27,820 nt of DNA. Origin: a virus (taxonomy: Duplodnaviria > Caudoviricetes). The DNA is taken from the IMG/VR virus record IMGVR_UViG_3300025608_000075, positions 1 through 27,820 of that record; one strand, written 5' to 3'. Positions within the stretch are counted from its first letter, which is position 1. The number at the start of each line of letters is the position of its first letter. A program made the position numbers and the translations under genes. The notes under the pieces are model-generated. The model was not told where the DNA came from and did not search any database. It saw only the letters and a list, made by a program, of their open reading frames with translations. Positions 5 to 26,807 of the stretch are shown piece by piece.

Positions 5-160
5 TTACTTTTCTTTTTTAATATGTATCCACTTGGATACAGTATATCCTATTGTAATTACAAGTAGTAATATTTTCAAACTGTCTTCTATTTGTGCAAA
101 CGTTGTTACGCCTAACGTTCCGGCGTTCATAGCGTATAGTTTAATATCTGATAAGCTCAT
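5..160 (-). CDS. Small membrane protein, putative holin (51 aa)
   Basis: The ATG at 160 lies just after the stop of the upstream ORF (ends 162), so it is a better start than the track's 217. The product has hydrophobic segments (LYAMNAGTLGVTTFA; ILLLVITIGYTV) and a basic C-terminal tail (KWIHIKKEK). Its stop overlaps another ATG (TAATG) that runs off the window edge. Holin function is inference. Confidence 0.55.
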   Translation of the reverse strand: MSLSDIKLYAMNAGTLGVTTFAQIEDSLKILLLVITIGYTVSKWIHIKKEK

Positions 161-161
161 T

Positions 162-440
162 TTATTCTCCGCATTTTTTTGATGGATCATCAACTCTTCT
201 CCAGTCTTCTTTTTCAAACCAGTCTCTAAGTGTAGCTCCTTTTTTACGAGCGCCTTTAACGTTTGTTTTAGACGATCTTTTATATTTACCTTTTGCGCCA
301 GCAGATTTTTTAGAGTTTACTAGCTTTTCTCTTTGCTCTTTACTCATACTTCTTATTTTAGAAGCAGGTAAGCATGTTTTAGTTGTACCACCACCTTTTT
401 GTTTATGCAAAGGCGTATTACCTGGTTGTACGTAAGCCAT
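162..440 (-). CDS. Small basic phage protein (92 aa)
   Basis: Very Lys-rich, with CLPASK and LRDWFEKEDW...CG motifs reminiscent of small basic proteins in aquatic phages. It is coupled to the upstream ORF by a 1-nt overlap at 440. Confidence 0.75.
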   Translation of the reverse strand: MAYVQPGNTPLHKQKGGGTTKTCLPASKIRSMSKEQREKLVNSKKSAGAKGKYKRSSKTNVKGARKKGATLRDWFEKEDWRRVDDPSKKCGE

Positions 441-811
441 TATTTTTTACCTCCAAATTTACTAGGTCCACCAGCTTTAGTACATCTTACACCCCAACCT
501 GAAGCATAAGCACTAGGCCAAACCTTAAATTTTCTTTTTGCAGCAGCCTTACAACCTGCGCTAATTTTAGCGTATAAAGGCGAACCCATGTTTATAGGAT
601 TCTTAGTTACATATGGTCCTTTTTTATCTACTTGTATTGTAGAGTAATCTTCAACAGATAACTGAGGAAAAGTAGTGGCATCACCTTCTTTTTTTGAAAA
701 CTGCTTTTCAAAATCATCTTCAGTAACATAATCACCTTTTTTATAAATCTTGCTAGGCTTGTTAATTCTAATAGTATCTCTATGTACTTTTTTATTTTTT
801 GGATCCGGCAT
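440..811 (-). CDS. Small basic phage protein with WPSAYASG motif (123 aa)
   Basis: The C-terminal CKAAAKRKFKVWPSAYASGWGVRC resembles a motif I recall from cyanophage and giant-virus hypothetical proteins (DUF5872-like, unverified). It overlaps the giant ORF by 20 nt. Confidence 0.75.
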   Translation of the reverse strand: MPDPKNKKVHRDTIRINKPSKIYKKGDYVTEDDFEKQFSKKEGDATTFPQLSVEDYSTIQVDKKGPYVTKNPINMGSPLYAKISAGCKAAAKRKFKVWPSAYASGWGVRCTKAGGPSKFGGKK

Positions 812-3800
812 CTTTCTTTTTATTTTGTAATTTTATAATTTCTTTTACTCTATCTTCTTCTTTAGTTAAAGCTCTAATTTGTTTTTTAGTTAAACCTAAA
901 TTTAAAAGCTTTTTAACTTGATCTGATTTATTAAGATCAAATAGTTTTTTAGTTTGCTTTTCAGTTTCAGTCAACACTGGTTTGTCTTCAGCTAAACCAA
1001 AATAAGGTAGTCCAACATCCCAACCTGACCAACCTAAAGCTAGCGCAACTTTTTGCCAGTTTTCTGTAGAAGGATTTAATATATTACGCATGTTATTCAT
1101 CTTCATAACCGCTCTATCTAAAGGTATGTTTAGTATTGATGAAACAACTTGCGCACCTGCTAAATAAGCCGGATTGTCCATGCTAAAACCTTTTTCTTTT
1201 ATTTCTTTACGATTCCAAGAAACAGTTCTTGCAGCTGATTTTAATTTTCTAATCTTAGATCCAAGTGCTGGGGCTGTAGAAAGTAAGTCATCAAGAGCTT
1301 CTTCAAACTTAGGTGACTTCTTATCTGCTTGCTCAGCTATAGTCATTAAAGCATTTTTAATACCTGAAACTACAGCGCCTTGTATACCAAGACCTTTAAG
1401 CTGAGAATCAATAGCACCATTTAAAGTTCTTTGTAGTTTTTGCTCTTTATTTTTTTCTGTTAGCTTTTCATCTTCTTCATCATCATCGAATAACGCCCAG
1501 GCTAAACCGCTTTGCATAGCATTAAACATTAAGTTTTGTATAGCGCCGTAGTAAACTATTTTAGATACATTGCTTTTCCAATCACCTCTCTTGTTTACTA
1601 GATCTTGCACAGCTCTTTTTTGTATACGTACATACTGTAATTGAGTGTTACCAAACTGAAGTATAATACGACCAATTAAAGATCTTTGCTGTTGGCTAAT
1701 TTTAGATGGACTACTAGACTGCTGGTTTTCTTCAGCTATAGCTCTAAAGTCATTAAAAGCTTGTTCTTCAGCTGCTTTTCTATCCATGCCTTGTTCAACC
1801 AAAGCTTCAGTTCTATTTCTATAAAATGTAGCACCACCAGAAGCTATAGCAAAACTATCTGCATATCTTGTAAATACAAAACCTTTATTAAGTAAAAATG
1901 ATATAGCAGAGTTAACTTTGTTTTTACTACCTTGTACAGCATCAGCTATTTCAGATTCACTTACGTTTATTTTAAGACCATCACGTCTTTCAAGTAAGTA
2001 ATCAGAGTTCATAAGAGTTAAAAAGTCACCCCAAAATTGTTTTTGATTAGCAAACGCTTTACCCGCCTTTAATATATTATTATCACCCCAATTTACAAAA
2101 TTTACCGCAGATATGGTCTGTAGCACTGCAGATCTTGTGTTTAAGAACATTATAGCACCAACAGAGTTGTTTAGCCAGTCTAGTATACCGTCTGATACTC
2201 TATCGCCGCCTAATGGTCTATTGCTGCCACTTTTCATTGCTCTTAAAGAGTCTTTTAATGCCTCGACATACTTAGCGCCAAAAGCAGCTTCTAGCTTATT
2301 TATGTTCTTTTCAGAAAATATAATATCTACATTTTCTTGCCACTCTTGCAAATACTCTTTTCTATTAACTTTATTAATACCACCTATAACGTCTGTGGTT
2401 ATAGTGCCAGCTGTCCAGTCTTTACTAGGTTCCGGATATGGCTTGTCTTTTTGTATTGTTATTAAGTTATCAGCAAATACACTAAGCTCTGCATCGTTAG
2501 TTATAAAATCAGTTAATCTTTTTTGATCACGCTTAGAAAGTCCTGGAACTTCAATGCCTTGTTTATTCCATATGTAGGTTCTAATAGCATGCTGGTATGT
2601 ATACTTAGCAATACCAGTTTCTTTTTCTAAAGTTTTCGGTATGTTTTTAAATTGCTTTTTTAACGCTTTGTAATCTCTACCAGCTGACACTTTAGCCTGT
2701 GATAAAGCTATTTCAGCTCTATTATAAGGATCTAGTAGATTTGTTTTGTAAAATGCCATTTGAGCATCACCAACTTTACCTTTACCTAATGTTTTGTAAA
2801 GTAAGCCTAAAAAGTCTTCAGCAGATGGTGTTGTAAAGAAAGTAAATTTACCTTTACTTGATCCGACTGTTTTAGCTTTAGCAGCAGAAAACTGTTTATA
2901 AGATTCAATACCTACTTTTTGTTCTATAATATCATTGAACACTTTGTCAAACACTATACGTTTGCTAGCTTTAGCTTGCTGTACCTTTGATTTAACATCA
3001 ACTTGACTTAATACGTTTTTAACAGCTTTAACATTTTTAATAGCATCATCAGCAAAATAAAAATCGTTATAACCCTCAGCGGCTTTACCCATAATCCAAC
3101 CTGCTTTTGCTTCAGCAGTGCCATCGCCTAACCCTGTTATGTTCGCTAAAGGTATGTCAATACCATTTGCTTTCATAAACTCTTGTATCGGACCAGCAGC
3201 GTTAGCAGGTCTTGCCGTTAATATAAATACATCATCAGTACCTCTTGCTGCAGCTATTTTTTCAGCAACACTAAATAATGGTCCTTTTTTACCTTCAATA
3301 ACTTTACTAAACTCTCTAAAGTCAAACTCTGCACCTTGACTTTCTAAAACATCATAATTTTCAGCAAAACTAGTTGCATCAACTTTACCAACTTTGTTAG
3401 CATTTACACCAGCGTAAACTTGCTGTAGAAAATCATTAGGCAAAGGCTTGCCGTACTCTATAGTCTCTGTGTTTATCTCGTATAAGCGATCACCAAAGTC
3501 TTCTCTATATTTAGCTAAACTTTCTTGAACTTGATCATAGGTTTTCTTTACAACAAAATCAGGTAACGATCTTTCTGTTCTAGCTTTGTTTCTAGCTATA
3601 GCAGTTTCAAGAGGCGTTGTAGCCACAACCATATGTACTTCAAAACCTTTATCTTGTAAAGCTTTTATTTTCTTAGTAGTAGCATTGTAAGAAGCGCCTG
3701 TGCCATCTATAACCATGCCATTACCTGCAGCGGCGTATTTATCGAATTTAGCTACAGCAGCTTTTCTAGCAGCAGCACCAAGCTTTGATCTAGTAGATCT

Positions 3801-6800
3801 TTGCTCTGCTGTATAATCAGATTCTTTAGCTGGTAATCCAGCTTCTTCTTTCATAGCTTCTAATGCTATATCTTGATTAACTACTTTATAACCACGTCTG
3901 CCGAGTTGTAATCCTTTACCAACATTTGTTTTACCAGCACCAGGACCACCAACCATGAATATAGCTTTTAGCTTTGTAGCGCCTTCACTAAAACCGCCTT
4001 CAACATTTGGTACAGTATATAATACTTTACTTTTAGATCTGGCTAATGTATCATCAAAGTCAAATACTCTAATCTTTTTAATAGGAGCATCTGGTCTTCT
4101 AGCGTTATTTAAAGCTTTGTCTGACTTAGCTAAAGCGTTAACGCCTGTTTGTACCGAAATAGTTTTGCTGTATTTTATTTCACTAGGCATTAGCTCATTA
4201 ATGCGTTTAGAGGCTTTTGCTTTATCGTTAGAAAGCTTGCTTTCATCTTTAGCGTATTCTTTTACTTGCTCTAATGTTTTTTCGCCTGAAAAATAATCTC
4301 TTATTAACTCAGCTTGAGTATTTTGCTGTAAACCTTTAACGCCAAAAAAGTACTCGCTAATAGTTTGACCTGTAGGTATATAAAGTAAATTATCTAAGTT
4401 TATTCCAGCTTCCGTAAAACGTATAGTAGATAATAAACCTCTATCAACTTTTATTTTACCTTCTTTAAGAAGCTCAACTGCTTTCCAAAATAAATCTGGC
4501 ATAGATGATTTAAAATCTACATCTAATAAATCATTATTATTTAAAGTAATCCAGCCTTGCATATAAGAAGCCTCTATAACAGGCCAAACCTCATTGATTC
4601 TACCTTCTTTTGCCGCGTTTGTTAAAGTAGTCCCTATATTATTTTGTGGTTCAGAGTGTTCTTCAATACCTTTTTCATTTCTAATAACTTTACCATTAGA
4701 ATCTACTTCAATTATTAAAGCGGGTGCTAAAGCTCTTAATGGAGCATTTTGAGAATTTGTAGCAGCAGACGCTATACCGTCAAAAACCCAAGTGTCTTTA
4801 GGATTGTTTTTTAAATATGCTTCTGCAGCTAAATAAAAATCTTTCAGTAAATCTAATTTAGCATTTTCTTTAGCAACGTAGCCAGGTTTTGATATAGCTT
4901 CTGCGTAAGAATTAGTGACCATTCTGTCTTTAGTCATAGGTGTTCTTCGTATATCAGCTTGTTCTCCAGTCTTATCTAAACGCTCATTGAATCTACTTAC
5001 TATACCGTATGGTGATCTTGATTCTCCGAAAACTAAAGAAAATTTAAGATAGTTATTAAACTTAGGGTTTTTCTTTAAAAATTTATTTAATACTCTATCA
5101 AATCCTTGTATAACAGTTTCACCGTCTACAGCTTTTACACTATCACTTAAAAGTTTGTTTCTATCGTAGTCTCGTTTTTTACTATCTGGCCTACGCTTTG
5201 TCCCTTCCTGCTTTTCGTCAACTCTAGTTTTACCAGCCGCATCCTGCATAAACTTAGAGGTCTGTTTTGGCGTTTTAATTTTTTTACTAAACTTAGCGCC
5301 ACCAACAGCTCTTTCGGCTGATGTAGTCACTAAATCTTCAAACATGCGGTTTCTAATATGCAAGTTTAATAAACCACGTATTGTTTGACCTACGGCGTCT
5401 CTATATATCGGCTTAACAGGTTTTTGTCTAATAAGACCTATATAGTCTTTTAAATTACCTGTAAGTTTGCCATTTGTATATAAAGCATTCATTACGTTTC
5501 TAGGTAAAAAAGTACCTTTACCAAAACCATCTTTAGTCTTTGGTAATCTAGCAAAATCGTTATTAGCGTTTTTAAGTAAAAACTGTTTAGCTGTTGTTAA
5601 TCCTTCAGCGTCTGTTTTCTGATAGTTTCTAGTTTTATCAGTTATAGTTTGAGGATTTAAACCAAACATACCAGCGTATATATCTGCTACAGCTTTTGGC
5701 ACGTTTCTAGTTTGACCAAAAGTTTTAATATCTTGGCCTTTAAAAGAGTCTTTAGTAGCTTTGGTTATTTTAGTTTCAACTTCAGCTTTATCTTTAGCGC
5801 CAATTTTTTCTATTTGAACTTGTGAAAACTCAACCGTTTCTGTAGGTTTTTTAGCTATTGGCTTTTCTTTAGTTTCTACCTCAGTGGTTTCTTCAGCCAT
5901 AACGCCTTTAGCCTCTGTTACATCACTAGTAAACTCTTCACCTAAAACTCTTTGAGAAGCTTCGATTGCTCTAGCTGGTAAAAACTTATTTATATAAGCG
6001 GCTAATGGCACGCCTGATTCAGGATTATACTCTCTAATTAAATCGAATATACCACGCTTACCTGTTTCAATTTCATCAGTTAGTAACTGACGATCAAAAT
6101 TAGGTGCGTCTCTTCTTTTATCTACTATTCTATTTACTATAGGCTTGAATTGATCTATAATATCAAAAGCGCCAGCTTCACCTTGAGTGTCGTATATCTC
6201 TTGCACTTTAGTAGATGCTATAGCTCCAGTATCTTTTTTGCTTTCTTTAGCTACGATATCTGTAACCTCAGCTTCTATATCTGTTGTAGGTTTTATATCT
6301 ACTTCAGCTCCTTTTTTGGCTACTTTTTCAAGACCTTTAGAAAGACCTTTACCTTTTTGCACGCTTCTGTTGTAATCTCTAACAAAGTTTAATACATCTC
6401 TTCCAGTTTTAAACTTAACGTTTAGACCCATAGCGCTTAAAGCTCTACGTATAAAATCACCTATTTTAGTTGTAGCTTTTTCGTTAAAAACAATGTCACC
6501 ACTTTCTAGTCCTTCACTAGCAAGAGTTAATACCTCTTCCATAGTATCTGCTTTAGATATATCAGCATCTTCAACGTACTGGTTAAATCTATCTAAAAAC
6601 TTAGAACTATTAAACGTTATGTCTTTACTATTTTTTAATTCTTCTAAAAGAGATGCACCTAAAGCTATTGCAGCTTCAGGTTTGTTTTTAACAGTTTCAA
6701 ACAAAACAGCATGACCAACCTCGTGTTGAGCAGTTGTCATTACATTATCTTGAGCTGCAGATTCTTTGTTTAAAATTATAATTCTTTTACCATCAGGCAT

Positions 6801-8540
6801 TACTACAAATGTACCGTAGTCTTCAGAGCTTTTAGTATCAATGTTTCCACCTTGCTCTTTTAAAGTTTCTATAGCAGAAGCTACATCAGCTTCATTTTCA
6901 AAAGTTTCAAATCCAGTTTCAATTTGCTCAGCTATAACTTTAGCTCCTTTTTCTACTTTAGCCGTTTTATCAGCTACAATTATATCGTTTAGTTCTTTGT
7001 CTATCTCGCTAAGTCTTTCTGACTCTGCTTTTGTTAGACTGGAATTATCTACTTGCTTTATTTTGTTCTTTAATTTTTTTTGCTCAATAACTAGGTCAAC
7101 TACTGGTTTTGTGTTTTCAACGCTAATACCTAATGGTTTTACAGTATTTAAAGCTCCTTGTATATCTCTAAAGTTACTTCTAACATTGTCGGCTTGCTCT
7201 ATAGTAAATACACCATCTCCAACTTTTTGTTTTAGCTCAGCCTCAAGTTTATTTTGAGTAAATTTATTTTCACTAAGCTTGGGTAATCCCTCGGTTACAT
7301 CAGGAGTTTCATAAGCGTCAACGACGTTATCGTATTCAGTGCCTTCTAAGTCTCTTTGTACGCTATTATCTTGTATAGTGTTTTTAATTAATCTAGATCC
7401 AGCTGCGCTAGCTCCGACTGAGCTCATTCCACCACCCATCATACCGCCAACTAAAAAAGTGTCTACTAAATCTCTAAGGTGATTATCAAATGTATCTTTT
7501 TTGCCAAGTTGAGCAGCGTCGACCATTTTGTTTATAACTTCAGTAGCAGTTTCAGACAAACCTTCAGCGCCATAGTCTTTACTTATACCTAAAGCAATTT
7601 TAGTAATTGACTCAGTTGCTTCTTTTTTACCTTTACCTGCAAGGTTTTTAAACATTCCTCCGCCAATTTTTTTAGTTACAACTTCTAAAAGACCTTCCGC
7701 AGCGCCTCTTACGGTAGAATAACCAAGTGTTTTTAAACTTAAATCTTCACCTTCTTTTTGAGCTTCGGATGAAGCACCAGCGGTTTCGCCAGCTACTATT
7801 GAGGCTATACCAACGTATGGTATCATAGACTGAACAACAGAAGGTAACGAACCTAAAGCGTCAGAGGCTGTTCTAACAGTAGCTTCTACAAAGTTACCTT
7901 TAGCGTATTCCTCTCCTATACTAGTTTCAAACTGTGTTAAATCTTGTCTTATTTTATCAGCTTTTACAACAGAGTCTTCATAAGTCTCTAAACCAATATT
8001 AGCTAAAGCAGTCATACCGGGTTGAGATCCAATATTAGCTAAAGTTTGCTTAACAAGAGGATCTAAAGCGTCGTATCTAGCTTTTTCTTCGTCACTCATA
8101 AACTCTCTATCAACAGCCATTTTAAACTCATTTAATAGAGTTGGTACTCTTGCTAACTTTCCTAAAGCATCCACAGTAGCTGCTTTTATTTTAGTACCTG
8201 TTTCTGCCCAAAAATCCCAATCACTTCCTTCTTTAGCTGCTCTTTGATAGCTTTCCCATAAAATATTCTCAGCTTCTCTATCTAATTCTTTTATTTTATC
8301 TTCTGGTGATACCGAAAAAGTATCTTCCAAAGCGAATACCGTAGGCTTTGGTGCCTGTTGTGGTCCTACCGACGGAGCACTTGCACCCACTACACCGTCT
8401 CCTGTCTTTACTGATTCGACAGAGGTTTCAACAACTTCTTTTTTGTTATTTTTTTTCCACTCTATTACTTTAGCTTTAATCTCATCTGCAGATAAACCTT
8501 GATCTTGTAATGAAGCTACGTAAGTTTCTAATTCATTCAT
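792..8540 (-). CDS. Giant polyvalent, probably virion-packaged/ejected protein (2582 aa): zincin peptidase motif, sigma-70 region-2-like segment, HAD phosphatase with inserted P-loop kinase, helical C-terminal region
   Basis: Uninterrupted 7.7-kb ORF. Motifs: HEVGH at 6725-6711; sigma-like GIFDLIREYNPESGVPLAAYINKFL at about 6055-5980; DFDDT from 4061; Walker A GGPGAGKT at 3950-3927; ILTARP near 3218; FADD near 3050. It follows the tail and ejection-like genes, as podovirus internal virion proteins do. Confidence 0.85.
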   Translation of the reverse strand: MNELETYVASLQDQGLSADEIKAKVIEWKKNNKKEVVETSVESVKTGDGVVGASAPSVGPQQAPKPTVFALEDTFSVSPEDKIKELDREAENILWESYQRAAKEGSDWDFWAETGTKIKAATVDALGKLARVPTLLNEFKMAVDREFMSDEEKARYDALDPLVKQTLANIGSQPGMTALANIGLETYEDSVVKADKIRQDLTQFETSIGEEYAKGNFVEATVRTASDALGSLPSVVQSMIPYVGIASIVAGETAGASSEAQKEGEDLSLKTLGYSTVRGAAEGLLEVVTKKIGGGMFKNLAGKGKKEATESITKIALGISKDYGAEGLSETATEVINKMVDAAQLGKKDTFDNHLRDLVDTFLVGGMMGGGMSSVGASAAGSRLIKNTIQDNSVQRDLEGTEYDNVVDAYETPDVTEGLPKLSENKFTQNKLEAELKQKVGDGVFTIEQADNVRSNFRDIQGALNTVKPLGISVENTKPVVDLVIEQKKLKNKIKQVDNSSLTKAESERLSEIDKELNDIIVADKTAKVEKGAKVIAEQIETGFETFENEADVASAIETLKEQGGNIDTKSSEDYGTFVVMPDGKRIIILNKESAAQDNVMTTAQHEVGHAVLFETVKNKPEAAIALGASLLEELKNSKDITFNSSKFLDRFNQYVEDADISKADTMEEVLTLASEGLESGDIVFNEKATTKIGDFIRRALSAMGLNVKFKTGRDVLNFVRDYNRSVQKGKGLSKGLEKVAKKGAEVDIKPTTDIEAEVTDIVAKESKKDTGAIASTKVQEIYDTQGEAGAFDIIDQFKPIVNRIVDKRRDAPNFDRQLLTDEIETGKRGIFDLIREYNPESGVPLAAYINKFLPARAIEASQRVLGEEFTSDVTEAKGVMAEETTEVETKEKPIAKKPTETVEFSQVQIEKIGAKDKAEVETKITKATKDSFKGQDIKTFGQTRNVPKAVADIYAGMFGLNPQTITDKTRNYQKTDAEGLTTAKQFLLKNANNDFARLPKTKDGFGKGTFLPRNVMNALYTNGKLTGNLKDYIGLIRQKPVKPIYRDAVGQTIRGLLNLHIRNRMFEDLVTTSAERAVGGAKFSKKIKTPKQTSKFMQDAAGKTRVDEKQEGTKRRPDSKKRDYDRNKLLSDSVKAVDGETVIQGFDRVLNKFLKKNPKFNNYLKFSLVFGESRSPYGIVSRFNERLDKTGEQADIRRTPMTKDRMVTNSYAEAISKPGYVAKENAKLDLLKDFYLAAEAYLKNNPKDTWVFDGIASAATNSQNAPLRALAPALIIEVDSNGKVIRNEKGIEEHSEPQNNIGTTLTNAAKEGRINEVWPVIEASYMQGWITLNNNDLLDVDFKSSMPDLFWKAVELLKEGKIKVDRGLLSTIRFTEAGINLDNLLYIPTGQTISEYFFGVKGLQQNTQAELIRDYFSGEKTLEQVKEYAKDESKLSNDKAKASKRINELMPSEIKYSKTISVQTGVNALAKSDKALNNARRPDAPIKKIRVFDFDDTLARSKSKVLYTVPNVEGGFSEGATKLKAIFMVGGPGAGKTNVGKGLQLGRRGYKVVNQDIALEAMKEEAGLPAKESDYTAEQRSTRSKLGAAARKAAVAKFDKYAAAGNGMVIDGTGASYNATTKKIKALQDKGFEVHMVVATTPLETAIARNKARTERSLPDFVVKKTYDQVQESLAKYREDFGDRLYEINTETIEYGKPLPNDFLQQVYAGVNANKVGKVDATSFAENYDVLESQGAEFDFREFSKVIEGKKGPLFSVAEKIAAARGTDDVFILTARPANAAGPIQEFMKANGIDIPLANITGLGDGTAEAKAGWIMGKAAEGYNDFYFADDAIKNVKAVKNVLSQVDVKSKVQQAKASKRIVFDKVFNDIIEQKVGIESYKQFSAAKAKTVGSSKGKFTFFTTPSAEDFLGLLYKTLGKGKVGDAQMAFYKTNLLDPYNRAEIALSQAKVSAGRDYKALKKQFKNIPKTLEKETGIAKYTYQHAIRTYIWNKQGIEVPGLSKRDQKRLTDFITNDAELSVFADNLITIQKDKPYPEPSKDWTAGTITTDVIGGINKVNRKEYLQEWQENVDIIFSEKNINKLEAAFGAKYVEALKDSLRAMKSGSNRPLGGDRVSDGILDWLNNSVGAIMFLNTRSAVLQTISAVNFVNWGDNNILKAGKAFANQKQFWGDFLTLMNSDYLLERRDGLKINVSESEIADAVQGSKNKVNSAISFLLNKGFVFTRYADSFAIASGGATFYRNRTEALVEQGMDRKAAEEQAFNDFRAIAEENQQSSSPSKISQQQRSLIGRIILQFGNTQLQYVRIQKRAVQDLVNKRGDWKSNVSKIVYYGAIQNLMFNAMQSGLAWALFDDDEEDEKLTEKNKEQKLQRTLNGAIDSQLKGLGIQGAVVSGIKNALMTIAEQADKKSPKFEEALDDLLSTAPALGSKIRKLKSAARTVSWNRKEIKEKGFSMDNPAYLAGAQVVSSILNIPLDRAVMKMNNMRNILNPSTENWQKVALALGWSGWDVGLPYFGLAEDKPVLTETEKQTKKLFDLNKSDQVKKLLNLGLTKKQIRALTKEEDRVKEIIKLQNKKKDAGSKK

Positions 8541-10349: not shown

Positions 10350-11807
10350 TTAATATCCATTTGAAAATGTATAATTTGATCCTACCATAAATAATTCTTT
10401 ATATCTACCTGGTTCTGTGACTGTATCTGTAGACATTTTAACTACAGCATAATAACCTTTTATACCAGATATTTGATTTCCAAAAACTATTTCACCTTCA
10501 GAAACCGGCGTATTATTAACTACATTTGCACAATATTTATTTTCTTTTCTATCAAAACCTACTCTAAATATAGGTTGAACCGTTGCTGAAGTACCTGTGT
10601 TTGGAGGTACAGCAGAATCATAAGCGCCTTCAGTATAACTCAGTACGTTATTTGTTTTGTCAAAAACATAAGGATTTATAATGTTTGAAGAGCTTGGCCC
10701 TGTTTCATCTGAAACAAAAGAGTCAACTTGCCAACCATTAGTACCTTCGTAAGATATTGTGTTAAACACTTTAGAGTTTCCAGGTCTTGGATTAAAAACA
10801 AATGTTACTTCAGAAGCATTGCTTGTGTTGTAAAATTGGTTATAAGGAACGTTTGTAGAGTTGTGCAAATATAAACCATCTCCGAACGTTGTATAATGAT
10901 TATTCTTTAAGCTAAAAGATTGACTTGGTTTGTAAGAGTACCTACTTATCCAGCCTCTAGCAGATTCATCGTAAGATAAAGTGTTGTAAGAAATATTTGG
11001 ACTAGAAGGTTGTATAGAAACAATGTAATCTTTATTGTATATATCAAAGCCTCCTAGTATTTTTCCTTTACCAAAATTAACAGAATCAACACTTACTATT
11101 TTATTTCTAAAGAAAGATCTCATACCAGTAGCTGATATTTCTGTCAAACCATCAGCGCCTAATCTCATGACACTGTTTTGATATGAGTCTACAAAATATT
11201 TATTATAACCATATACAGCAAAACTTTCAGGGTGATTACCAATACCGTAATTTCCACCATATGGTACTATTTGACCAATTACAGTCGTAAAAGAACTAAC
11301 AGGCAAGCCTCCACCTTCAGCTGAATATATAGCGTCTTTATCTATCAATGCTCTACTAACTTTAGATTCTTGAAATATAATTAAGTTAGTATCTTCAGCA
11401 TAAAGCTTTTGTATAGAACCATTTGCTGGGTCTAAGCTTTTTGTTATATTCTCGCTAACGCTGAATACATTAGTTTGATTTATACCTGTTCTAGAGTTGT
11501 ATATACCTGAGTATATCATAGAGTTTAACCTAAAATTAGCATTAGGTTCTTCTTCTACTAAATAAGCTCTAACGCCATAATCCGTAGAAGTATTATTGTA
11601 ACCGCCTCTAATTCTAGCTTCTTCAACAAACCAACTAGTATCCCGATCTACAGGGTTGCTAACATCGTCATAAGCAGGAAAACCACCTATTGATTCAGGT
11701 ATACCAAAAGAGCCATTCCATACTGGTTTTGTAGTAGTAGAAGCTGCTGTTGCAGATTTTTTTAAAACAAAACTGTTAAAGTATTTTACTTCAATTATAG
11801 CTGCCAT
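10350..11807 (-). CDS. Tail tubular/stabilization-type structural protein (485 aa)
   Basis: Beta-rich, propeller-like sequence (SIQKLYAEDTNLIIFQESKV; YGIGNHPESFAVYG; GWISRYSYKP) in the tail module. It resembles the P22 gp10 / T7 gp12-like proteins of crAss-like phages. Confidence 0.65.
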   Translation of the reverse strand: MAAIIEVKYFNSFVLKKSATAASTTTKPVWNGSFGIPESIGGFPAYDDVSNPVDRDTSWFVEEARIRGGYNNTSTDYGVRAYLVEEEPNANFRLNSMIYSGIYNSRTGINQTNVFSVSENITKSLDPANGSIQKLYAEDTNLIIFQESKVSRALIDKDAIYSAEGGGLPVSSFTTVIGQIVPYGGNYGIGNHPESFAVYGYNKYFVDSYQNSVMRLGADGLTEISATGMRSFFRNKIVSVDSVNFGKGKILGGFDIYNKDYIVSIQPSSPNISYNTLSYDESARGWISRYSYKPSQSFSLKNNHYTTFGDGLYLHNSTNVPYNQFYNTSNASEVTFVFNPRPGNSKVFNTISYEGTNGWQVDSFVSDETGPSSSNIINPYVFDKTNNVLSYTEGAYDSAVPPNTGTSATVQPIFRVGFDRKENKYCANVVNNTPVSEGEIVFGNQISGIKGYYAVVKMSTDTVTEPGRYKELFMVGSNYTFSNGY

Positions 11808-24596: not shown

Positions 24597-26807
24597 TTAA
24601 CTTATTATTTTTGATGTATAACCTCTGTTATCGTATCTTTTGATACCTATATCAACCGGTTCTGTTTTTCTTCTATTTACTGGCGCATACCTATGTTTAT
24701 TACAAGCCATTAAAGCTAATCCCGAGCTAATAGACGCATCGTGAGAAGTTCTATTATTTATATTAAATTTAGCCCAGTCCTCTAATGTTCTTTGAAAATA
24801 CATGTCACCATAACCTGTTTCTTTTAAACCTACAAATGTTTCTATGTAAGATTCAATAGCTGCAGCGTGCGCTTGTTTTATATCTTCACTTGAGTTAGGT
24901 ATACCACCTATTTCTCTTTCTGTTACAGATAATTTGTTTCTACTTCTATCTGGTCTATTCATTGCAAAACCTCTATAACCTCTTTTTTTAAAATAATATA
25001 AAAGTCTTGGTTTGTTATTTTCAGCTAATATTGGCATACCATAAAAAGCACAAGCCATTAAAACATCTTCAAAAAATATTTCAGCTGTTTGTGGTCTTGC
25101 TATATATTCTAAGAAAAAATGATTAGGCGGTGCGTCTTCCATTGAAAACTTAGTTAAACCATGTAGAGATCCATTGGAACCTCTTTTGTCTACTGTACCT
25201 GATATATCATATGGATCACATCCAAATGCTCCAATATGATCATTTCCTGGATAAAACCTACCGTTTTTAGAATATTTTTTATTTTGCAAATTAATTGGTG
25301 GAACCCAAGACACTAAAAACCTACCGTTTTTGTTTGGGTTAAATATAACCCTTGTATCTTGTTGACCATTCTCCCATTGAAATGATCCTTGCGTAACATT
25401 AATAGAGTTACGCATATCTTCATTAAAATCAATTTGCTCGTATATTTTAGTTAGATTAAACAAAGACTGTTTTGTCTCATCTCTAAAAGCATGCTTTTCT
25501 GTACGTGGAAACTGTCTGTAGAATTCATTTAAAGCATCTTGATCTTCTTTTAATCCTTCTACTTCGTTCTCCCAGTATTCTATTACACCTATTTTTATCT
25601 TTTCACCCTGTGGACCTTCTACCGGTTTTTCTGGAGTGTCGAATACAGGTAGTCCATAAGAATCAATGTATCCTTCGTAATTCCATTCCATAGGTATAAA
25701 CAAAGAATATAATCCTGAACGAGTCTGTCCATTGGCGTTTCGCTTCGTAACATCTGAGTCGTCATAGAGTTTTTTAAAATTTTTGCCTCCTTTATCATGG
25801 GAATTTGATGTTGAGCCCATCATGCATTTACCTATAATTTTACTACCTAATCGTAAACAGGTTTTAGTAACGCGCCAATTATTTAATATATTATTAGGTT
25901 TTTCCCACTTTCCACTTTCATCGTGTACTAGTAGTTTTAGTTTTTCACCATCGTACGAGTTATCCCCCGTGTTCTTCCAGTCGATTGTGGTATCAAGACC
26001 GTCGAGCTCTTGAAGCTTTTCATTGGTTTCAAGTTTTTTTCTAGTGTATTTTGTAGCCGGTACTCTGTATGCAAGTTCGGTTTTCGGCCTGTCCATACCG
26101 TCTTGGATCGGTTTGAAAAAGAACGGGTAGTTGACCGAGATCGGTACGACCTTATCTGTGAACATCTTCTTAGCATCGGGACCAGACTTTGACAAGATAC
26201 CGAACCGTGCATCACTAGAAATCGTTGCAGCATTGACCGTTTCAGCTGAGGACATAAACGAGAATCCTGAACGGCGGTTCTTAAGATAACACATTCCGTA
26301 ACATCGTGAGTCTGCCCTGCAAGCCTCCCAGAATATAAAGAATAATCTGTTTGACTCTCTAAAGTCTGGCTGCCCAACGTCAATTTTGCTCCACTGCAGG
26401 TACATAAAGTGAGTACCAGTAATGTAAGTAGCCACGCCCTTATTATAGAACCAAAACCCTTGTTCTCTTTTATTAAATTCGTTATCAATATAATCATACC
26501 ATTTTTCTTTAAAGTCTACTGGGTATTCTTCCCAATCAAAAACAGACTTTATTTTTTTAAGCTCTCGAGGGTATTCAGTGTGTTCCCATTTATTACTTTT
26601 AAATTTATGAACCTTACTAGCTTTGGGTAATCCTATTTTAAGGTTTTGTATTTCGTATATTTCACCTACCTCGCCAGTCTTGCTTATAACTACTAAGTCA
26701 TAATCCTCGTTATAACCATATTTCCACTTTTTGGCTTTGTTCATTTTAGCCATTGCGTGAGGTTTTATATAGTCTTCGACTACTTTATATAGTGTTTGCT
26801 CGTACAT
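24597..26807 (-). CDS. terL: Terminase large subunit (736 aa)
   Basis: Variant Walker A LKNRRSGFS, Walker B LLVHDESGKW and coupling motif GST. RNase H-like nuclease motifs FGCDPYD and HDASISSG. Confidence 0.93.
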   Translation of the reverse strand: MYEQTLYKVVEDYIKPHAMAKMNKAKKWKYGYNEDYDLVVISKTGEVGEIYEIQNLKIGLPKASKVHKFKSNKWEHTEYPRELKKIKSVFDWEEYPVDFKEKWYDYIDNEFNKREQGFWFYNKGVATYITGTHFMYLQWSKIDVGQPDFRESNRLFFIFWEACRADSRCYGMCYLKNRRSGFSFMSSAETVNAATISSDARFGILSKSGPDAKKMFTDKVVPISVNYPFFFKPIQDGMDRPKTELAYRVPATKYTRKKLETNEKLQELDGLDTTIDWKNTGDNSYDGEKLKLLVHDESGKWEKPNNILNNWRVTKTCLRLGSKIIGKCMMGSTSNSHDKGGKNFKKLYDDSDVTKRNANGQTRSGLYSLFIPMEWNYEGYIDSYGLPVFDTPEKPVEGPQGEKIKIGVIEYWENEVEGLKEDQDALNEFYRQFPRTEKHAFRDETKQSLFNLTKIYEQIDFNEDMRNSINVTQGSFQWENGQQDTRVIFNPNKNGRFLVSWVPPINLQNKKYSKNGRFYPGNDHIGAFGCDPYDISGTVDKRGSNGSLHGLTKFSMEDAPPNHFFLEYIARPQTAEIFFEDVLMACAFYGMPILAENNKPRLLYYFKKRGYRGFAMNRPDRSRNKLSVTEREIGGIPNSSEDIKQAHAAAIESYIETFVGLKETGYGDMYFQRTLEDWAKFNINNRTSHDASISSGLALMACNKHRYAPVNRRKTEPVDIGIKRYDNRGYTSKIIS
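25619..25798 (-). CDS. Candidate overprinted ORF in +1 frame of terL (59 aa)
   Basis: Hand-translated as MIKEAKILKNSMTTQMLRSETPMDRLVQDYILCLYLWNGITKDTLILMDYLYSTLQKNR*. It coincides with terL codons unusual for this genome (CTC, GAC GAC, ACG AAG CGA AAC GCC, CCG). Confidence 0.35.
   Translation of the reverse strand: MIKEAKILKNSMTTQMLRSETPMDRLVQDYILCLYLWNGITKDTLILMDYLYSTLQKNR
25937..26497 (-). CDS. Candidate overprinted lipoprotein/membrane protein in +1 frame of terL (186 aa)
   Basis: A same-strand 186-codon open frame in an AT-rich gene. It has a hydrophobic stretch ending in Cys (RAWLLTLLVLTLCTCSG), and GC is locally raised over most of the overlap. Confidence 0.55.
   Translation of the reverse strand: MIILITNLIKENKGFGSIIRAWLLTLLVLTLCTCSGAKLTLGSQTLESQTDYSLYSGRLAGQTHDVTECVILRTAVQDSRLCPQLKRSMLQRFLVMHGSVSCQSLVPMLRRCSQIRSYRSRSTTRSFSNRSKTVWTGRKPNLHTEYRLQNTLEKNLKPMKSFKSSTVLIPQSTGRTRGITRTMVKN

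Follow-up and report, generated by a model that had tools for sequence, protein, structure and literature searches.

A second reading frame within the terminase gene

We analyzed the 27,820-bp stretch of IMG/VR virus record IMGVR_UViG_3300025608_000075 (referred to here as the window), a fragment of a phage late region that carries, on the minus strand, a GroES-like gene, a 91-aa gene, the gene for the terminase large subunit (terL), a portal gene, and structural genes. The record spans just these 27,820 bases, and any cassette past the small gene at its edge is cut off. An earlier note on this DNA, made from the sequence alone, had claimed that a 186-codon open reading frame (ORF) lies in the +1 frame of terL across the Walker A region and encodes a lipoprotein, possibly a lysis or exclusion protein. 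The ORF is present at 25937-26497 on the minus strand, and the G+C counts offered in its support (28, 30, 17, and 13 per 60 bases) were exact on recount. We take KNRRSGFS to be the Walker A-like motif and LLVHDE to be the Walker B-like motif of TerL (Table 1); in the longest ORF class among relatives, the nested frame reads on through the LLVHDE region. The nested protein had no match in Pfam, PHROG, or Atlas. A protein search with it returned 45 similar proteins, and the 18 that we inspected look like the same frame or like frameshifted TerL fusions.

Table 1. Positions of terL, the nested gene and its parts, and other features in the window
Feature	Position	Strand	Evidence or remark
terL, terminase large subunit, 736 aa (host frame)	24597..26807	-	phrog_6681, E 8e-167
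Nested +1-frame gene within terL, 186 aa, TAA stop	25937..26497	-	Open in 49/63 terminase-selected sequences
Start and basic N-region of the predicted signal peptide	26435..26497	-	ATG at 26495-26497; alternative TTG at 26486-26488
Hydrophobic region and lipobox-like end, WLLTLLVLTLCTC	26396..26434	-	Predicted lipidated Cys34 at 26396-26398; Cys32 as alternative
Mature part, basic, Ser/Thr/Arg-rich, low fold confidence	25940..26395	-	26 K+R, 7 D+E, and 43 S+T+P in 152 residues
Walker A-like motif of TerL (KNRRSGFS), inside the nested gene	26259..26282	-	Sequence; label presumptive
TerL Walker B-like motif LLVHDE, just past the nested stop	25917..25934	-	Sequence; label presumptive
Holin-like hydrophobic 51-aa gene at the window edge	8..160	-	Putative function, from position and hydrophobicity; precedes endolysin in some relatives

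Openness of the +1 frame among homologs

The main set comprised codon-aligned terL sequences from 80 viral loci picked by TerL alone, which collapsed at 95% identity into 68 sequences including the window; 63 of these covered the ORF region. The +1 frame was kept open in 49 of the 63, over codons 110 to 289 in 43 and over a shorter length in 6, and contained 5 to 9 stops in the remaining 14. Most close homologs thus lack the +1-frame stops that the earlier note had named as a test of dual coding within terL, and this claim gained support from the 43 long-ORF sequences, in which 0 stops were found against 7.4 to 10.6 expected. In the window, 9.2 stops were expected from terL codon usage outside the overlap; the probability of finding none was 3e-7 and was still 0.014 under the GC-enriched codon usage of the region itself. 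The longest stop-free +1 stretch measured 192 codons in terL, whereas none of the window's 11 remaining long genes had one outside the range of 29 to 61 codons.

A second sample, not chosen by the ORF, consisted of 41 genome-bin loci (8 partial, 33 scored). The frame was open in 21 of these, stopped early (codons 191 and 220) with an intact signal in 2, and contained several stops in 10; i.e., the ORF was retained in 23 of 33. For a third sample of 19 loci found through the small window-edge gene (2 partial, 17 scored), the ORF was kept in 16 of 17. Among 155 pooled nonredundant loci, which are biased toward the ORF because they include scans made with the ORF protein as the query, 121 were stop-free, 34 had 2 to 8 stops, and none had exactly one. 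The ORF was absent from all four named outgroups (elemoE 6-9C, phi38:1, phi19:3, and MW202828).

A stop upstream at codon 107 was followed by an ATG in 22 of 24 cases, which favors independent initiation over frameshifting and makes a frameshift fusion to TerL unlikely. By these comparisons, the alternative frame is open beyond chance, places a bounded constraint on its host gene, and appears to have arisen later than the frame of that gene. It is almost certainly a selected second gene.

Another stop-free +1 stretch of terL (window 25619-25798, minus strand; 59 codons) was open in 95 of 104 homologs, whether or not their lineage carries the ORF. About 1.2 stops were expected there, no conserved start was seen, and the stretch is probably not a gene.

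Codon composition, synonymous constraint, and RNA signals

G+C content at third codon positions (GC3) was elevated solely inside the ORF and fell off at the ORF end of each lineage. Over codons 291 to 318, GC3 was 0.71 in 28 sequences with an ORF reaching to about codon 320 and 0.30 in 15 sequences stopping near codon 290, and in the short-ORF class it dropped to 0.21 past codon 258. ORF-less lineages had a GC3 of 0.20 to 0.32 throughout, and higher-GC relatives (GC3 of 0.55) nonetheless carried +1 stops. The possibility that the GC patch was imported from a high-GC donor, which had been raised as a potential refutation, was rejected because GC3 follows three different ORF stop positions and not a fixed donor tract. 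Recombination does occur, as the overlap and the C-terminal part of terL gave conflicting trees.

Suppression of synonymous variation was seen only at terL codons 100 to 180, where the p-distance at four-fold sites was 0.33 to 0.36, compared with 0.50 to 0.52 outside the ORF and 0.51 to 0.59 in ORF-less lineages. The proposed synonymous-site test was therefore passed by the N-terminal third of the gene; beyond it, we found a shift in composition only. No conserved RNA structure was found over the ORF (structure conservation index [SCI], at most 0.25), and a promoter/terminator scan yielded nothing usable (4 promoter-like sites versus 2.3 +/- 1.2 in shuffles). A weak consensus RNA fold was present at terL codons 360 to 382 (SCI, 0.42 to 0.47).

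Start codon, signal region, and mature tail

An ATG was present at terL codons 100 to 115 in 69 of 72 ORF-bearing sequences and in 8 of 24 ORF-less sequences, and the local folding energy around the nested start was 0.0. Before the hydrophobic helix, the window offers just ATG1 and TTG4 as starts; past residue 4, no further start codon precedes the helix, contrary to the earlier suggestion that the true start might lie further downstream.

A basic N-region is followed by an uncharged hydrophobic region, as in signals of the Sec/signal peptidase II type, and a conserved Cys closes this region in 49 of 49 sequences of the first set. Among these sequences, Leu27 (48/49), Thr33 (49/49), Cys34 (49/49), and Ser35 (47/49) were conserved through synonymous choices in terL: TerL Tyr136 was TAC in 49/49 (background, 0.32), the Leu137 codon YTG ended in G in 49/49 (background, 0.11), and Gln138 was CAG in 47/49 (background, 0.18). 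The first base of the Leu137 codon varied (TTG/CTG, 38/11), and this is what protein-level selection in the nested frame allows. Fixed sites of the nested product were Met1, Leu24, Leu27, Thr33, Cys34, Ser35, and a few later ones. The hydrophobicity at codons 122 to 137 (Kyte-Doolittle, 2.1 to 2.5) compared with 1.1 in ORF-less lineages. In the AlphaFold model, the N-terminal helix was the sole helix above a predicted local distance difference test score (pLDDT) of 70; the whole-model pLDDT of 44.7 is uninformative. The predicted N-terminal signal with a selected Cys was thus supported by the invariance of Thr33 and Cys34, and the comparison shows the frame, the start codon, the hydrophobic helix, and Thr-Cys-Ser to be under selection.

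The nested product has one hydrophobic segment, at its N terminus, and a polar, basic C terminus without a C-terminal transmembrane (TM) segment. As judged by the same comparison, the tail is selected only to be polar and basic (i.e., a compositional constraint). A u-spanin, which is defined by a C-terminal TM segment and a beta-rich periplasmic domain, is ruled out as the identity of the product because the C-terminal TM segment is lacking.

Evidence for a lipid anchor

TerL Tyr136 permits just Thr or Ile/Met at position -1 of the nested frame, and Thr is used. Where TerL differs, C-S-C appears, with Ser at -1 (L404, L500, and L512). A distant clade of six nonredundant sequences plus L408 has lost the window-type helix and motif; in the same clade, an uncharged hydrophobic stretch 16 codons upstream ends in [TI]-G-S-C, a canonical G-S-C lipobox, and TerL reads YWFMCN in all six. 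This relocated canonical G-S-C is the strongest argument for a lipoprotein. Furthermore, 113 of 115 ORF-bearing sequences had Thr-Cys at one or the other of two sites, compared with 20 of 34 ORF-less sequences. Lipid anchoring of the nested product is probable on this evidence; the lipoprotein claim is sustained by the selected Cys, by Ser at -1 in three loci, and by the clade with the relocated signal, but not by the Thr at -1, which falls outside the G/A/S consensus.

Some members of one 117-member control family tolerate Tyr, Asn, His, or Lys at -1. The same residues stand directly before the first Cys in some Bacteroidota lipoprotein homologs (P0183 to P0287), which suggests a relaxed lipobox in this phylum. 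Literature on a lipobox with Thr at -1 was not found, and the remaining rows of the SpaninDB table may hold such lipoboxes. The acidic surface-export signals of Bacteroidetes lipoproteins given in the available part of PMC5080379, K-(D/E)2 or Q-A-(D/E)2 after the Cys, were not found in the nested product (C-S-G-A-K-L-T-L-G), from which we infer a periplasm-facing position.

Complementary distribution with predicted stand-alone u-spanins

In many ORF-less records, endolysin or holin genes are flanked by a separate gene for a lipoprotein that ends in a TM segment. These lipoproteins match phrog_5885 and by eye resemble the SpaninDB u-spanin of phage 11b. A phrog_5885-type u-spanin was present in 14 of 45 records, and all 13 that were scored lacked the ORF (G055 was not scored); a u-spanin-family gene was present in 0 of 27 ORF-bearing records, many of which are fragments. 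Four ORF-less records were also without a u-spanin-family gene, and other spanin-like genes occurred in ORF-less G044, L388, L400, MW202828, elemoE, and phi19:3. A 41-row TerL tree shows two u-spanin changes, both paired with an ORF change in the opposite sense: the u-spanin disappears where the ORF arises and returns in a single nested clade from which the ORF is gone. The exclusion between u-spanin and ORF rests on about two independent events; it makes a coherent history but carries no statistical weight.

A family of 180- to 217-aa proteins with an N-terminal hydrophobic helix, a Cys, and a beta-rich body (L173:24391-25014, L261:7159-7704, and L400:4080 onward) was seen in the lysis region of ORF-less phages. 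At least two of its members lack the usual C-terminal TM helix, and the family is a spanin-like candidate.

An orphan i-spanin-like gene

Many ORF-bearing genomes have, directly after the endolysin gene, a gene for a 90- to 150-aa protein in which a single N-terminal TM segment leads through a linker into a long acidic helix; it was modeled as TM helix, linker, and helix with a pLDDT of 81. Its mean net charge is -8.6, versus +11.1 for the mature nested product. No lipoprotein-like ORF lay beside this gene in 78 of 80 loci. Where terL was also present, the ORF was kept in 40/40 loci, plus 24/24 further scored loci from 30 records, most i-spanin-like-gene loci being close kin. The gene was absent from 4/4 complete u-spanin genomes. 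Candidates were found in G001 to G005 and in the complete genomes G062 and G075; G111, whose TerL shows 94% identity in its C-terminal half, carries a distantly related gene. Only 3 of 30 records found through the window-edge gene match the i-spanin-like gene. The nested gene is neither embedded in, overlapping, nor adjacent to an i-spanin gene, as an o-spanin gene would be, given that it lies in terL at least 4 kb from the candidate; the largest separation of spanin genes in the survey of PMC6139136, in the part available, is about 1 kb.

The i-spanin-like family (L264 to L343, e.g., L181:9223-9498) is abundant and unannotated, with the TM helix, linker, and acidic helix described above. Its gene follows the endolysin gene in some genomes, lies between two exported-protein genes in L341, L343, and G005, and occurs too in records without a window-type TerL.

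Proposed role and alternative explanations

Our best reading is that the nested product works like an embedded lysis lipoprotein; it is not established as an o-spanin and is no u-spanin. A late transcript common to terL and the nested gene would be translated in the +1 frame, and the product would be exported, processed by Lgt/LspA, and lipid anchored at Cys34, in a position that would face the periplasm. The tethered polycationic tail could then act on the host outer membrane alone or, in some lineages, with the acidic product of the orphan i-spanin-like gene that follows the endolysin gene. Overprinting on the branch of u-spanin loss is the probable origin of the nested gene. That this de novo lipoprotein replaces a stand-alone spanin in outer-membrane disruption at lysis seems to us a possibility somewhat short of an even chance. 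The complete account is more tentative: a lysis lipoprotein born within the best-conserved region of the packaging motor may have displaced the ancestral u-spanin of an abundant marine phage lineage, as a disruptor or with a distant i-spanin partner, with its signal built at two places and TerL residues adapted to it. The lysis role advanced in the earlier note thus receives indirect support from the mutual exclusion with the u-spanin family, a pattern that is not statistically independent; its o-spanin-like assignment was not established, since three near-complete ORF-bearing genomes lack the i-spanin candidate that many others carry.

Several observations weigh against a lysis lipoprotein. 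The window reads L-C-T-C, with Thr at -1 and Cys at -2, and departs from the lipobox consensus [LVI][ASTVI][GAS]C, which as quoted in the available text of PMC6139136 is without Thr at -1; Thr occupied -1 in 0/117 u-spanin-family and 0/117 PF28492 Bacteroidota lipoproteins. The predicted signal peptide is long (28 to 33 aa). Several lineages with the ORF no longer have Cys34 (TCTS, TCIS, and CTYS), although most of them keep Thr31-Cys32, with 2 of 115 sequences keeping neither and L383 and L502 as further exceptions to the conserved Cys. Tail length varies widely among relatives and the tail can end at terL codons 191 to 225; moreover, past codon 180, the four-fold p-distance (0.63) is higher than outside the ORF, i.e., the tail is without synonymous suppression, because the codons chosen there move the second frame toward Ser, Thr, Pro, and Arg. 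In the near-complete ORF-bearing genomes G096, G099, and G109, no i-spanin candidate is present and no lipoprotein is predicted other than the nested product; L393 has the i-spanin-like gene and no ORF. On the TerL tree, two further ORF losses (G020 and G022) came without replacement; no stand-alone lipoprotein was found up to GroEL in these two or within 8 kb in ORF-less L382, L391, L392, and L396. Independent ORF/u-spanin pairs were 1 concordant, 0 discordant, and 2 uninformative (p = 1).

If the product is exported and lipid anchored but serves the envelope in another way than lysis (receptor masking/superinfection exclusion, lysis timing, or protection of released virions), this would account for the repeated losses without visible replacement in G020 and G022, the accessory-gene-like absence of the ORF from about a fifth of lineages (14/63), the variable tail, and the three near-complete genomes without an i-spanin candidate; the spanin pattern would then reflect shared ancestry. 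We consider such a role rather unlikely, given that the nested gene never occurs together with the u-spanin family (0/27 versus 13/13), sits in the late operon, and has no acidic surface-export signal of the kind given in the available part of PMC5080379. A stricter sub-case of the lysis reading, in which the product is a true o-spanin and forms a two-component system with an i-spanin-like partner encoded 4 to 9 kb away or further, appears improbable: the partner is absent from G099, G096, and G109, is present in L393 without the ORF, and is found mostly in close kin, and the surveyed maximum separation, in the part of that survey available, is about 1 kb. Nevertheless, the partner has Rz-like architecture and occupies the Rz-like slot, is of opposite charge, has no adjacent lipoprotein-like ORF in 78/80 loci, accompanies a retained ORF in 40/40 plus 24/24 loci, and is absent from 4/4 complete u-spanin genomes.

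The gene could also be real but unlipidated, with the helix serving as an uncleaved inner-membrane anchor or a signal peptidase I-type signal in an antiholin-like or packaging-associated tether. A 19-residue window does score as TM, and the noncanonical Thr at -1 and the loss of Cys34 in some lineages are as expected from such an anchor, but the relocated signal ends in a canonical G-S-C that required TerL substitutions, Ser takes -1 when TerL permits, and Thr-Cys is kept in 113/115 sequences versus 20/34 ORF-less ones, which leaves this explanation with a small probability. Hardly any probability attaches to there being no second protein, with the open frame and GC patch due to a high-GC donor tract, an RNA/DNA element, or TerL codon constraints. 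The overlap DNA tree does group ORF-bearing sequences apart from the C-terminal tree, as recombination would; however, ORF-less lineages with the same TerL have 5 to 9 stops, GC3 tracks three stop positions, relatives with a GC3 of 0.55 still have stops, starts are retained right after upstream stops in 22/24 cases, and no conserved fold was found.

Relation to known systems

The comparisons below refer to the available parts of the sources cited. Lambda Rz1 and the embedded o-spanins (Kongari et al. 2018, PMC6139136) are likewise lipoprotein genes in the +1 frame of another gene, with a largely unstructured mature part. In contrast to Rz1, the host of the nested gene is the terminase ATPase and not an i-spanin gene, the lipobox has Thr at -1, the partner is absent in some genomes, and the mature part is about 55 to 185 aa and basic, whereas that of Rz1 is 40 aa and Pro-rich. 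T7-like genes 19.2 and 19.3 (PMC4925675) are small ORFs annotated within the large terminase gene (ORF46.2 and 46.3 in ORF46); they encode 42 to 56 aa, are listed without function, and belong to an unrelated phage family, whereas the nested gene encodes 112 to 220 aa with a selected export signal. The flavobacterial u-spanins phrog_5885 and phage 11b gp49 (predicted, SpaninDB) share an N-terminal lipoprotein signal and the same phage group with the nested gene and have a distribution complementary to it, but they are stand-alone, have a C-terminal TM segment, and carry Ser at -1 in 117/117; the nested product lacks that segment and has no sequence similarity to them. The phiKT gp28 disruptin (10.1101/515445) is also a cationic phage product and serves a spanin-less phage in outer-membrane disruption, but it is a 56-aa amphipathic peptide without a lipid anchor, encoded by a stand-alone gene. 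Marine Flavobacteriaceae phage "group 2" (PMC5332604) and Pachyviridae/Pervagoviridae (PMC8776804) have phi38:1-like structural genes, GroES/GroEL, and related TerL and portal proteins; the cultured members elemoE 6-9C, phi38:1, and phi19:3, as well as MW202828, are, in contrast, without the nested frame.

We found no prior description of the gene in the literature searched, which left most subscription journals uncovered. Overprinting in terL has precedents, and so do +1-frame lipoproteins; the two together, along with a relocated signal, did not turn up in that literature. The system offers an unusually clean natural experiment in gene birth, with lineages with and without the gene, several lengths, and two signal positions; because all lineages share one essential host frame, each step is readable from the sequences. 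The gene is common in the terminase-selected samples (49/63 and 23/33), yet it is normally missed by gene callers and annotations. If the lysis role is true, the gene gives a testable answer, in part, to how "spanin-less" phages breach the outer membrane, and spanin searches must cover alternative frames of genes distant from the lysis cassette.

Host and neighboring genes

The window TerL is 44%, 39%, and 36% identical to the TerL of Elemovirus, Baltivirus, and Callevirus, respectively, and 32 to 39% identical to that of Cellulophaga and Tenacibaculum phages. From these likenesses, we infer a host in the Flavobacteriia, and they point to marine "group 2" as defined in the available part of PMC5332604. 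A host search via genome bins found phage contigs in metagenome-assembled genomes (MAGs) of mixed taxa, several of them Bacteroidota, and gave no host assignment. Window-type TerL occurred in MAGs labeled as archaea, Clostridium, Aliivibrio, and others, with L400 (CP070801.1) among the loci and one 1.05-Mb "chromosome"; these odd placements are probably misbinned phage DNA. A phage-borne 390-aa PF28492 lipoprotein with close Flavobacteriaceae homologs (L175:7823-8995, G001) also speaks for a host among the flavobacteria; its gene is possibly auxiliary.

The minus-strand gene at window 792-8540 encodes a 2,582-aa protein with an internal P-loop kinase domain (AAA_33/zeta-toxin-like, residues ~1525 to 1675) and a weak LPD14 match; it is a large polyvalent-type protein that closes the structural module. 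The product of window 10350-11807 (minus strand) matches the Crassvirus muzzle C-terminal domain (PF25729, E 4e-13). A cluster of small, very Lys/Arg-rich genes beside the holin-like gene (window 8-811, minus strand) recurs in relatives (e.g., G003, L181:9498-10906), and these genes possibly encode DNA-binding core proteins.

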